Made by a program: the position numbers and the translations under genes. The notes beneath the pieces were generated by a model. It searched no databases and was not told the origin of the DNA. It worked only from the letters and a program-made list of their open reading frames with translations. A stretch of 9,651 nt of DNA, taken from IMG/VR virus record IMGVR_UViG_2585427793_000010. The stretch is one strand, 5' to 3'. This stretch comes from a virus (taxonomy: Duplodnaviria; Heunggongvirae; Uroviricota; Caudoviricetes). Shown one piece after another: positions 2,591-7,107 of the stretch (the first letter of the stretch is position 1; every line of letters starts with the position of its first letter).

Positions 2591-3918
2591 ATAAAGCAAT
2601 AAAAGTATCATTGTATATATCTTTTGTTTTGATTATTTGCGCCTTATCTAAAAACATAATGATGTTAAATACATCTGATTTCGGAAGAGCCATTAAGCCA
2701 TTAATTGAAGACATACCAGCATTTACATATGACTTACCTTTATTGTATAAATTGAAAGGTCATATTGATTCAATTGATAGCTATGAGTATATAAGTTCAT
2801 ATAGTTATATTTTGTATACATACGTCCTGTTTATTAGCATTTTTACTGAATATCTTGATGCTAGGGTGTTATCGTTATTTCTAAAAGTAATATATATTTA
2901 TTCATTATATGCGATATTTACTTCATATATAAAAACAGAAAGGTATGTAACTTTATTTACATTCTTTATTTTAGCTTTTCTTATGTGTTCTTCATCAACA
3001 CTGTCAATGTTTGCATCATTCTATCAAGAGCAAATAGTTATAATTTTCCTTCCATTTTTGGTGTATTCATTAACATGCAAAAACAATAAATCTATGCTTT
3101 TGCTATTTTTTTCGTTGCTAATAATATCTACTGCTAAAAATCAATTTATATTAACCCCACTAATAGTGTATTCATATTATATTTTTTTTGATAGACACAA
3201 ACTAATTATTAAATCTGTAATATGCGTGGTGTGCTTGCTTGCGTCAATATTTGCAATATCTTATTCAAAAGGTGTTGTTGAATTAAATAAGTACCATGCA
3301 ACATACTTCGGTAGTTATCTTTATATGAAAAACAACGGGTATAAAATGCCATCGTATGTTGATGATAAGTGTGTTGGGTTAGATGCCTGGGGTAATAAAT
3401 TCGACATATCATTTGGCGCAACCCCAACAGAAGTTGGAACGGAATGTTTCGAATCTCATAAAGATGAAACGTTTTCGAATGCACTCTTTTTATTGGTTAG
3501 CAAACCAAGCACCATCTTCAAACTTCCATTTGATGATGGTGTGATGTCTCAGTATAAAGAAAATTATTTCCATGTATATAAAAAACTACACGTAATATAT
3601 GGAGAATCAAACATACTAACGACTATTACTAACATAAAAGACAATATATTTAAAAACATTAGATTTATATCATTGTTATTATTTTTTATTGCTTCTATTT
3701 TTATTAGAAATAATAAAATAAAGGCATCTTTATTTGTAGTATCTCTTTTTGGAATATCTCAATTTTATGTGTCATTTTTCGGGGAAGGATATAGAGATTT
3801 AAGCAAGCATTTATTTGGAATGTATTTTTCGTTCGACCTTTGCTTATACATAACAGTCGTTTTTTTAATTTATAAAATAATTCAAAGAAATCAAGACAAT
3901 AGCGATGTAAAGCACTAA
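2587..3918 (+). CDS. gtrS: Serotype-specific O-antigen glucosyltransferase, polytopic membrane protein
   Basis: 443-aa highly hydrophobic ORF in the third position of the gtr triad. Markedly AT-rich (about 28-30% GC by eye) compared with gtrA and gtrB, typical of horizontally acquired type-specific gtr genes. Synonym yfdI. Confidence 0.85.
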
Positions 3919-3926
3919 GTTTAAAT

Positions 3927-3948
3927 TGCGCGCCAATCATGGCGCGCA
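3927..3948. terminator. GC-rich hairpin between the convergent gtrS and tail-fibre-fragment ORFs; possible bidirectional terminator
   Basis: Perfect 8-bp stem TGCGCGCC / GGCGCGCA with 6-nt loop AATCAT, 9 nt after the gtrS stop and 5 nt beyond the stop of the minus-strand ORF ending at 3953. No strong U-tract on either side, hence low confidence. Confidence 0.3.
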
Positions 3949-3952
3949 CAAG

Positions 3953-4282
3953 CTATAATACCAACCTAATTTCTCCTCCTCTTAGAGTGACTATATCTCC
4001 TGATAGAATTGCGGTATTGACTATCAAATGCCCTGATTCGTTGTTTATTGTAATATCTCCTCTATCTGCAGACGATAACTTAAATGCATCATTGCCCACA
4101 ACAAACCCCCTCCAGAACCAAGTGCTGATATTATCATCAACAGTGATAGATACATATACTAACTGATTATCGTTATAAGTGATTCCTGTCTTATACTTAA
4201 CATAAGGACTTCCACTTTGATTCTCGATAGACACATAACATCCAGGGGTTATGTTTGTATGCGTCCCGCGACTATCGCCCCA
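3953..4282 (-). pseudogene. Tail-fibre-like C-terminal fragment, AT-rich and N-terminally truncated
   Basis: The minus-strand frame is open for about 109 codons (stop on the plus strand at 4283-4285) in about 35% GC DNA, where stop-free runs are improbable. Product is beta-rich and N/G/S/T-rich (…ITINNESGHLIVNTAILSGDIVTLRGGEIRLVL), as in fibre tip domains. GTG start at 4234 has no good RBS. Family assignment is inference. Confidence 0.3.
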
Positions 4283-4999: not shown

Positions 5000-5641
5000 T
5001 TAATACCCTAATGCGAAAAATGAAGCACCGATACCGGGTACGCCTGCTCTGGAAATAAATTTCACCGGGTCCTGGTTATAACCGGCACAAGCTATATAGC
5101 CAACATTTGCACTGCCGGGAGTGTAATCCTGAGTCGCAAATACCCGCAGACATCTATTCGGAAATGCAATCGGAAAATAGGTTACTGTGTCCTGAGACGT
5201 CAGCGGAACATCAATTGGCCCCCATTGAATAATTAAACCGGATGGCAATTTTTGATATCCAGGAACTGAAGCAGAAAGCATAAAACTACCCATATCAGGT
5301 ATCTGATTCGCCCCTGTCCCTACATTTCTTTTAGCCGCTTCTCCCAAACCAAGGTTTTCGAGAGCCTTTTGCACCGTGCCGTCCAATTTGATATCGCCAA
5401 ACGGATTCTTGCGGCTTAACAGCAGCGCACGAAGCGCGGTAAGCAGCTGGTCATGCCGCCCCTTCTCCAGGCTGGCACCGGAGGCCTCCACAACGCTGCA
5501 AAGCTCCTCCTGCAACATGTCAAAGTAGTCATCATCCAGATCGGTGGCAGGCGTGCCGGTCTGGGGGTTACCACGGGTAAAACCGTTCTTACCCGCGCCG
5601 AACTTATCCTTCTGCGCGGTTTTCGTGTCTATACGATGCAT
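5000..5641 (-). CDS. yfdL: Tail fibre protein, short or rearranged
   Basis: 213-aa ORF immediately upstream of yfdK on the same strand (fibre then tfa order). The ATG at 5641 is preceded by GGAG with a 6-nt spacer, supporting the long form over the internal Met-42 start (172 aa). Fibre-like C-terminal region (…[19 protein letters not shown]…). Confidence 0.65.
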
Positions 5642-5644
5642 GGA

Positions 5645-5845
5645 TTACTCCGGATATTTAAAAATTACGTAGGTATGCGACGGGCAGAGTTTGTTAAGCA
5701 CACACTCGACAACGGTGTCACCCCAGATACGCAGTGCGGAATCACAGGGATCGCCACATGTCATCCAGGTGGTGTTGGCGGCGGCTGGCATGTTGACCTG
5801 CCAGTAATACCGCCATTCCGGCGCATTCACAGCGTCAGTAGGCAC
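5645..5845 (-). CDS. Hypothetical small protein upstream of and coupled to yfdL; possibly a gene fragment
   Basis: 66-codon ORF with GTG start. Its TAA stop lies 3 nt before the yfdL ATG, and the yfdL RBS (GGAG) sits in its last codons. No recognisable motifs. An in-frame stop lies immediately upstream, so it cannot be longer. Confidence 0.35.
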
Positions 5846-5847
5846 TC

Positions 5848-6144
5848 ATGTTAAAGCAGGTGTATGAAATGAAAGTCCAGATTTTAAACAATAACTGTGA
5901 AGTCGTTTGGTCATACGACATAGCCGCCCCTGTAGATCAGAGCGGCGATAGCTGGACCAATGGGAAACATCAGATTATGGCTGGAGTTGTGTTCTCTTTA
6001 CGCCGTGCTTTGGAACAGGCTGAAGTATTTCCATCAGACCCTGAATGGAAATGGCCTTTTTCTATTTGTCCAAATTCGGAGAGCACATTTCAGAAAATTG
6101 GTCAGAAAGTCGCACTCGAAGAGCATCAGCCAACTGTTTCCTGA
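5848..6144 (+). CDS. Hypothetical ORF; questionable
   Basis: 98 codons from ATG 5848 (alternative ATG at 5869 with AGGTG 9 nt upstream). No long minus-strand frame exists across 5846-6061. Its 3' end overlaps the convergent 81-codon ORF by 83 bp, so at most one of the pair is probably fully genuine. Confidence 0.2.
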   Translation: MLKQVYEMKVQILNNNCEVVWSYDIAAPVDQSGDSWTNGKHQIMAGVVFSLRRALEQAEVFPSDPEWKWPFSICPNSESTFQKIGQKVALEEHQPTVS

Positions 6145-6307
6145 TTTTTTCAGGTAACTCGTCGGCATCGCAGAAACAACAACGCTCGATCATGTTGAAA
6201 GCCGATTCGTAGAACTGTTTCTGCTGAGTGTCGCTGAGACAGGAAAAGAGCGACGTTACGATGATTTTATTAATTGCATTATCAAGTTCTTTTTCATCAA
6301 AAGTCAT
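6062..6307 (-). CDS. Hypothetical 81-aa protein with a Cys cluster, first gene of the leftward unit
   Basis: ATG at 6307 preceded by AAGGAA RBS (6-nt spacer) and an in-frame TAA four codons further upstream, so the ORF is complete. Product MTFDEKELDNAINK…ERCCFCDADELPEK…; no HTH recognisable. Transcribed divergently from the yfdP operon. Confidence 0.5.
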   Translation of the reverse strand: MTFDEKELDNAINKIIVTSLFSCLSDTQQKQFYESAFNMIERCCFCDADELPEKIRKQLADALRVRLSDQFSEMCSPNLDK

Positions 6308-6560
6308 TTGATTTTCCTTTTATGTATACGGGCTTAAAAGGATACCACCGAGCCTGAAGTGGTGAAAAGACAGGCACATAACAGCTAAGTATTTTCAACC
6401 AAAGAGAATCCTTAGCGTTGTGGTGAATGCGGCTCAGCGCACGCGGGTTAAGGTTGAGGCTGACAGTCGACCTTCTGTGGATACCCACCCGTCTGGTGTG
6501 CAACCTTCGCCAGGCACCGGGAGGCACCCGGCACCACAACTTTATGCTGTGTGTAGTCCT

Positions 6561-6607
6561 GGCGGTACCAGTTTGTGCCCTTGCTTCCGGCTGGTACCGT
6601 CCTTTTT
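6561..6607 (+). terminator. Terminator-like hairpin with T5 tract inside the GC-rich intergenic region
   Basis: Arms CGGTACCAG (6563-6571) and CTGGTACCG (6591-6599), extendable to 11 bp with one G-U pair, followed by TCC then TTTTT (6603-6607). The 19-nt loop lowers confidence. Confidence 0.25.
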
Positions 6608-6744
6608 ACAAAACAGAGAAGAGCATCACCGGACGACGGGCTCATAACCCAATCCATCCGGGCGGCTGCCACCGCAGGTGTTCTTCTCTGTTTTGTGGAG
6701 AAACTAATCGGCCTTGCAGCGTCGATATGATGAGGAGCAGCAAA

Positions 6745-7107
6745 ATGGCTAGCGAACGCAGTACTGATGTGCAGGCATTTATCGGGGAGCTGGACGGCGG
6801 CGTATTTGAAACCAAAATCGGCGCAGTTCTCAGTGAAGTCGCTTCCGGTGTGATGAACACGAAAACCAAAGGTAAGGTCTCACTCAACCTGGAAATCGAA
6901 CCATTTGATGAGAACCGTCTGAAAATCAAACACAAACTCTCATATGTTCGCCCGACTAACCGTGGGAAAATTTCCGAAGAAGACACCACCGAAACGCCGA
7001 TGTATGTCAATCGCGGTGGTCGCCTGACTATTCTGCAGGAAGACCAGGGACAATTACTGACTCTTGCCGGTGAGCCTGACGGAAAACTCCGCGCAGCAGG
7101 TCATTAA
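6745..7107 (+). CDS. yfdP: Conserved prophage protein of unknown function, first gene of the rightward operon
   Basis: 120-aa product from ATG 6745, preceded by GAGGAG (6732-6737) with a 7-nt spacer. The 106 in-frame codons upstream (from 6427) are Arg/Cys-rich low-complexity read-through of GC-rich DNA and are judged non-coding. Confidence 0.8.
   Translation: MASERSTDVQAFIGELDGGVFETKIGAVLSEVASGVMNTKTKGKVSLNLEIEPFDENRLKIKHKLSYVRPTNRGKISEEDTTETPMYVNRGGRLTILQEDQGQLLTLAGEPDGKLRAAGH

Follow-up and report, generated by a model that had tools for sequence, protein, structure and literature searches.

Substitution patterns among diverged alleles show, beyond chance, that two convergent, overlapping open reading frames (ORFs) in the window, the 9,651-nt stretch of Caudoviricetes DNA analysed here, are both genes under purifying selection. 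Judging from their sequences and from their setting in related prophages, we think it rather probable that they together form a single compact accessory cassette found in SfV/e14-type lambdoid prophages, whose expression is mutually exclusive and excludon-like. What the window contains is most likely a convergent, “excludon-like” accessory cassette that occupies a slot already known to be variable; its notable feature, as read from codon alignments, is a dual-coded core that is conserved over deep divergence.

Both reading frames are genes

The minus-strand gene (6062..6307, 81 aa, with an ATG start given by the ORF list) belongs to PHROG 3311, its match to the profile covering residues 1-81 of 81 (E 1.2e-55). 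A Shine-Dalgarno sequence, AAGGAA, stands 6 nt before the ATG (6314..6319, minus strand), and a similar purine-rich motif is found at equal distance upstream of the minus gene in all lineages. For the plus-strand gene, the maximal ORF (5848-6144) gives a product of 98 aa from an ATG at 5848. The functional start is almost certainly the ATG at 5869, which gives a gene of 91 aa at 5869..6144, because every homologue of the protein begins with MKV, homology with phages of other immunity types starts at 5867, and an AGGTG Shine-Dalgarno sequence lies upstream of ATG 5869; the PGAP annotation, which is the 91-aa version, agrees. This protein is a member of the SfV orf33 family, PHROG 3195 (residues 1-98 of 98 in the profile match, E 6.4e-70).

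Approximately 155 near-identical loci from viral contigs (40 haplotypes) were compared. The minus ORF is intact throughout, and the plus ORF is broken in a single locus (L137), by a 1-nt deletion; frame-disrupting indels in the 81-codon ORF are thus absent from its close relatives, as the original prediction required. Among the 40 haplotypes the SNPs in the minus-only part are 9 synonymous versus 3 non-synonymous, and those in the plus-only part 8 synonymous versus 14 non-synonymous, the common variants there being mostly synonymous. Comparison with diverged alleles (Nei-Gojobori counts at 57-67% nucleotide identity, no indels) gave pS of 0.72-0.91 versus pN of 0.18-0.37 for minus-only codons in the minus frame (Fisher p 1e-6 to 5e-11), and pS of 0.70-0.93 versus pN of 0.18-0.34 for plus-only codons in the plus frame; over the own-frame tests of both ORFs, Fisher p ranged from 1e-4 to 1e-14. 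Every other frame of the cassette is interrupted by stops. The claim that the convergent overlapping pair consists of two genuine genes is upheld by this purifying selection in both own frames, and the 81-codon ORF, proposed as a gene for its AAGGAA ribosome-binding site and defined start, is confirmed as one by the ORF list and by selection in its own frame.

A conserved overlap with fixed geometry

The ORFs overlap at 6062-6144, which is 83 nt in the window; over the lineages the overlap varies from 83 to 173 nt (110-173 nt in the relatives). Codon-position identity across four lineages shows wobble periodicity of the plus frame at 5869-6085 and of the minus frame at 6121-6307. Between them, at 6086..6120, there is no wobble position in either frame and nucleotide identity is the highest of the cassette (0.74); therefore some 35 nt, or about 12 codons (plus codons ~73-84 and minus codons ~63-74), code for conserved residues of both proteins. 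The protein tails beyond this conserved core are unconstrained, and for this reason the stop positions drift.

Measured from one start codon to the other, the pair spans exactly 439 nt in five lineages, which show no indels over 57-67% nucleotide identity, and 442 nt in a sixth. The 439-nt group includes the window type, L085 (a Logan assembly) and L094 (other viral contigs), L172 (Yersinia) and L168 (a metagenomic phage); the 442-nt distance is that of L176 (a Pseudescherichia MAG), and L208, a metagenome contig, is also paired. Altogether at least six diverged lineages have the pair, their sources being E. coli, Klebsiella/Salmonella, Yersinia, Pseudescherichia and metagenomes; scans of genome contigs yielded none in the first scan and one locus in the second. 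Comparative alignment thus shows a pair inherited as a unit with fixed geometry.

All 28 of the 28 complete metagenome loci found via the plus protein have the minus gene, and the plus family without the minus family was not found in any lineage recovered through the plus protein; therefore both proteins probably act on one process. In one of the metagenomic phages (L168) the pair adjoins lysis genes rather than cI, so that the cassette moves as a unit. The minus family occurs alone in two lineages, a Cronobacter-type and metagenomic phages, in which it lies between Q and the holin gene, antisense to the operon. At L171 ~3900-3930 and L177 ~3395-3425 the solo gene is seen to sit antisense in the short stretch that separates the Q antiterminator gene from a strong, terminator-like hairpin (GGCTCGCTTCGGCGGGCCTTTTT as read on the late strand), and from this position the gene appears to lie opposite the late-operon leader.

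Placement at the head of the early-left operon

The original prediction had put the pair in the place of the head of a lambdoid pR operon. Intact relatives contradict this, placing it instead after the cI terminator and pL/OL, on the early-left side. In phage SfV and in E. coli prophages at thrW the pair is immediately 3' of cI, with the plus gene oriented as are cI and the early-left genes. SfV is 99.4% identical to the window across the pair, and its orf33 (NP_599065) is the plus ORF. The interval between cI and orf33 in SfV contains the cI terminator followed by a promoter, TTGACA-16-CATAAT, which matches the consensus at 11 of 12 positions and is overlapped by two operator copies, TGTACCCATGAGATACA and TGTACCCAAGAGAAACA, that match the OR sites (TGTACC... 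half-site pattern). By these sequence matches, this promoter and its operators between the cI terminator and orf33 are pL/OL. With pL/OL just upstream, the plus gene is therefore the first early-left gene and the minus gene is antisense to the operon.

Of the pL leader, a stretch of about 60 nt is conserved among prophages with different repressors and operators (L003, which is SfV, 5928-5990; L179, 1487-1547), and this stretch is missing from the window. On the minus strand the conserved leader has a terminator-like hairpin, GTGGGCGTCCTGCCTGT, with a T-rich tail (5944-5928 in SfV, and also present in L179), which would halt antisense transcripts short of pL. One type of prophage (L085) carries an extra ORF of 105 aa at 3664-3981 on the plus strand, between the repressor gene and the plus gene.

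Because the plus gene comes first after pL, its product was considered as a counterpart of the lambda antiterminator N; its N-terminus, MKVQILNNNCEVVWSYD, has no basic, Arg-rich motif, and with a pI of 4.95 and a net charge of -4 the protein was rejected as an N-type antiterminator.

An exchangeable slot between conserved flanks

On its left the slot ends at the cI-controlled pL with its leader; on its right stands a conserved block with an inverted repeat, and after this an STnc100-like RNA. As in other accessory cassettes, the content is exchanged between conserved flanks: the same place is taken by ymfJ/ymfI in e14, or by single antisense genes in L179 and L180. The cassette also has the deviant composition of a moron, with a GC content of 42.8% versus 51.2% in the left flank and 54.8% in the right. 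The single antisense genes (L179, 1615-2130; L180, 1627-2130; both on the minus strand) encode products of 171 and 167 aa that match no known family, and the gene in L179 has a strong terminator of its own.

The right-flank block, where the variable slot ends (6338..6376, delimited by identity across alleles), is 100% identical in the window, in the 67%-identical L085 allele and in e14. Within it lies an inverted repeat, ACCAC-N10-GTGGT, at 6344-6363, whose arms co-vary in other lineages (ACCACGC/GCGTGGT, ACCACA/TGTGGT and TTAACCTT/AAGGGTTAA). As a terminator this repeat was rejected: its fold z-score is -1.46, the T-run on the minus strand is unconserved and the plus strand has none. Candidate roles for it are those of a promoter spacer, an operator, a 5' hairpin or an RNA element of the pL transcript. 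It is overlapped by a candidate promoter for the minus gene, with a -35 element TTCACC at 6366-6361, a 16-nt spacer and a TG-extended -10 element TATCCT at 6344-6339; this site, TTCACC-16-TGgTATCCT, is weak (score of about 9, with 8 of 12 consensus positions plus the upstream TG). At -59 to -32 this extended -10 arrangement is seen again in five lineages, and e14 has it too; in L179 the -10 element is not kept. A search for a terminator of the plus gene found none.

Directly 3' of the cassette, on the early-left transcript, the next conserved element of the backbone is the STnc100-like structured RNA (6395..6610, plus strand; RF02076, E 1.3e-6), whose score of 39.5 bits is below the Rfam gathering score of 47. 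ORFs called over this RNA are probably spurious: the 226-codon ORF at 6427-7107 continues into yfdP, which really starts near 6745, PGAP has a “frameshifted hypothetical protein” in this region, and “ymfH” of e14 spans the homologous region. A relation of STnc100 to the prophage sRNA PasD is described in a 2026 preprint.

Two small, acidic, soluble proteins

Members of the 81-aa family were sought with a full HMMER scan across 1.8 billion representatives and then with a profile, which extended the family to Klebsiella, Salmonella, Yersinia, Cronobacter and metagenomes at identities down to 34%; the names within the family are “hypothetical” or “phage protein” only, and PHROG 3311 and PHROG 3195 are both annotated as being of unknown function. 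The positions conserved in the 81-aa family are hydrophobic helix residues and a few polar ones (K14, T18, L20, Q28, F32 and L63). An AlphaFold model built on an alignment of 16 sequences has three helices, at residues 5-22, 26-46 and 53-75 (pLDDT 81), and a search for structural neighbours of the model gave none that were informative. With a pI of 4.6 and no hydrophobic segment, the 81-aa product is predicted to be a small, acidic, soluble three-helix protein. Two metagenome assemblies encode variants of it with in-frame deletions: one (P0013) is without NMIERCCF, so that the CC of the cysteine cluster is gone, and the other (P0007) is without ESAFN; each is a single contig and may be an assembly artefact.

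The plus protein is likewise acidic and soluble, without a hydrophobic segment; its conserved core extends to approximately residue 84 and includes the invariant residues W14, D17, S25-G26, W29, H34, W60 and W62-P63. It matched no family of assigned function. The maximum Kyte-Doolittle value in a 19-residue window is 0.8-0.9 across both proteins, and sequence searches of Pfam, NCBIfam, PADLOC and PDB with both proteins and their homologues returned nothing significant, the best Pfam match having an E value of about 0.07.

The window as a variant of CPS-53/KpLE1

The window itself, at 9.65 kb, is a variant of the argW-associated cryptic prophage CPS-53/KpLE1, with the order intS, gtrA/gtrB/gtrC-type genes, tail-fibre remnants, yfdP-yfdQ-yfdR-yfdS-yfdT and torI; over 88% of its length it matches K-12 at 100% identity. 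Between the tail-fibre remnant and yfdP, K-12 has yfdM-yfdN-yfdO' and does not have the ORF pair; at that position the window has a baseplate fragment, the ORF pair, the conserved non-coding block and the STnc100-like RNA. The fragment is the C-terminal part of a ymfQ-like baseplate wedge gene (5645-5845, minus strand; PHROG 203 / Mu gp48-like). Comparison with SfV places a deletion junction, from the baseplate fragment to the distal pL leader, at 5836..5840. Homology with SfV starts at 5836, corresponding to position 6001 of the SfV locus, and therefore cI, cro, pR, OR and OL/pL are gone from the window together with most of the leader; to the left of the junction, the terminator that intact relatives have in their leader is missing as well. 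This CPS-53 variant has lost a segment different from that lost by K-12, and the junction occurs in none of the complete E. coli genomes of the collection.

A simple scan of 5600-6800 found no promoter-like site on the plus strand, the sole hit of the window lying inside the minus ORF. Because pL is deleted, the plus gene of the window is an intact but promoterless relic, whereas the minus gene retains its upstream region.

Comparison with known systems

The closest parallel in arrangement is e14 of E. coli K-12, which has on its left the identical YmfK repressor, the same pL and a leader identical over approximately 95 nt to that of the slot of our pair, and on its right a flank that corresponds to that of the window from ~6343 onward, with an identical inverted-repeat block and the STnc100-like region (“ymfH”). 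Between these flanks e14 has ymfJ in the pL sense and ymfI antisense to it (L167, 1878-2465), two small convergent genes that, like the window pair, overlap at their 3' ends, here by 63 nt. Homology of the two pairs was rejected, neither protein showing sequence similarity to its counterpart; ymfJ and ymfI have no match in Pfam or PADLOC. RNA and protein of ymfJ rise late in the SOS response, with a log2 fold change at the late stage of 4.8 for ymfJ versus approximately 2 for ymfI (PMC11002266), and ymfI-ymfJ has been listed from RNA-seq as a convergent excludon, together with sieB-ydaF of Rac (PMC12288877). The SfV record annotates orf33 alone; across the beginning of the minus gene it has a putative terminator.

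Excludons are opposite-strand neighbours with overlapping transcripts, a description that fits the window pair with its coding overlap of 83 nt; classical excludons overlap in long UTRs, whereas here the coding regions themselves overlap and about 12 codons are constrained in both frames. Accessory and defence genes have a recognised mosaic hotspot in the region from cI to N (PMC8585504). As in the window, lambda rexAB, HK022 nun and bstA of Salmonella BTP1 are repressor-adjacent accessory or defence genes of this hotspot, but their place is between cI and pL and they share the cI transcript, whereas here the plus gene follows pL and the minus gene is antisense. The gene sieB is expressed from the prophage, within the early-left region. 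Like the minus gene, sieB of lambda and Rac is an antisense gene in the pL region; however, SieB is a membrane protein of approximately 190 aa, whereas both window proteins are small and soluble. None of rexAB, nun, bstA and sieB is related to the window pair in sequence or fold.

Type I toxin-antitoxin systems with 3'-overlapping convergent transcripts are represented by bsrG/SR4 and txpA/RatA of Bacillus prophages. These resemble the window pair in being prophage-borne and convergent, with complementary 3' ends, but type I toxins are short, hydrophobic membrane peptides with a non-coding RNA partner, whereas here there are two conserved, soluble proteins. A type I system with 3' overlap was rejected on these grounds, neither protein having a hydrophobic segment and both strands encoding conserved proteins; a type II operon was also rejected, since the genes are convergent and gave no hit in Pfam, NCBIfam or PADLOC. 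The accession numbers and PHROG identifiers of the pair are mentioned in no paper in the literature searched.

Alternative explanations

That only one of the ORFs is a gene, the other being a by-product of codon structure on the opposite strand, is hardly credible, even though no annotation pipeline calls both (the SfV record, with orf33, and PGAP annotate the plus ORF only, and the vB_EcoM-720R4 record the minus ORF only) and an antisense frame whose third positions match those of a real gene (frame -2 or +2) can have a spuriously low pN/pS. The allele comparisons already contradict it: in the non-overlapping part, which is most of each ORF, the wobble periodicity is that of the ORF itself, stops are absent and substitutions are conservative, whereas the frames of the opposite strand are broken by stops; for each family, diverged members at 34-50% identity were found independently; and the solo minus genes are also under purifying selection (pS 0.67, pN 0.17). 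Unlikely, though a serious contender, is the idea that two independent accessory genes came to be packed tail to tail by chance, the overlap reflecting genome compaction without regulatory meaning. The solo minus genes of Cronobacter-type and metagenomic phages imply that the plus protein is not needed, the slot also accepts single antisense genes, and both tails are unconstrained past the core, with varying stops and an overlap anywhere from 83 to 173 nt; yet such chance packing does not sit well with the lack of any recovered lineage having the plus family without the minus family, with a start-to-start distance held at 439 nt at only 57-67% nucleotide identity, with an overlap of ~35 nt between the conserved cores of both proteins, or with the unrelated e14 pair, which in the same slot is likewise convergent and overlapping.

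Two further proposals concern what the proteins do. The pair might form a two-protein antagonistic module, either an early lytic effector (plus) with an inhibitor or immunity factor expressed in the lysogen (minus), or a defence protein with its self-immunity; in such a module exclusivity would be hard-wired by convergent transcription, and the dual-coded core of 12 codons would block separation by recombination. We hold this to be quite unlikely. Very doubtful is the proposal of the original prediction that its cysteines make the 81-aa product a small protein with metal-binding or redox activity. The motifs on which it drew, ERCCFCD, FSCLSD and MCSP, are all present, the residues C43, C44 and C46 are invariant over members from E. 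coli, Klebsiella, Salmonella and Yersinia whose overall identity is only 56-63%, and in the model the CCxC lies at the end of helix 2, where a site could be common to two subunits. However, the motif C43-C44-x-C46 (R-C-C-[FY]-C) is confined to that clade; elsewhere in the family the same position reads RRTYC, GLAYC or QSFEV, with a single Cys or none, so that C46 is the only Cys widely kept. C23 is not conserved across the family, and C75 is polymorphic, being replaced by Tyr in 14 haplotypes and missing from other alleles. This leaves three conserved Cys per protomer, two of them adjacent, with no His partner; four family-wide Cys/His ligands, as in a zinc ribbon or Fe-S protein, are not found in the 81-aa family, and the protein matches no zinc-ribbon, ferredoxin or thioredoxin family. 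Metal binding by the one clade with CCxC is possible, if weakly supported by these alignments, and would not define the family.

Expression and significance of the cassette

We return to the reading that we favour, of one accessory cassette with mutually exclusive, excludon-like expression, which we infer from the arrangement of the genes and their control elements. In the lysogen, cI would shut off pL and the plus gene would be silent, and a putative promoter of its own in the right flank would drive the minus gene, with antisense transcription crossing the plus gene and heading for the terminator in the pL leader. On SOS induction pL would fire and the plus protein would be made; the minus gene would then be suppressed, both by convergent transcription and by complementary RNA of at least 83 nt.

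Recognition of both genes settles a conflict of annotation, in that hundreds of E. coli and Shigella genome records miss one or the other of them. The slot at the head of the early-left operon in SfV/e14-type prophages is one in which the backbone provides pL and an antisense terminator-like hairpin and the cargo is exchangeable. The cassette itself offers a natural case of about 12 codons common to two opposite-strand proteins over deep divergence, and one that may be tractable for the study of dual coding and of control by convergent transcription.
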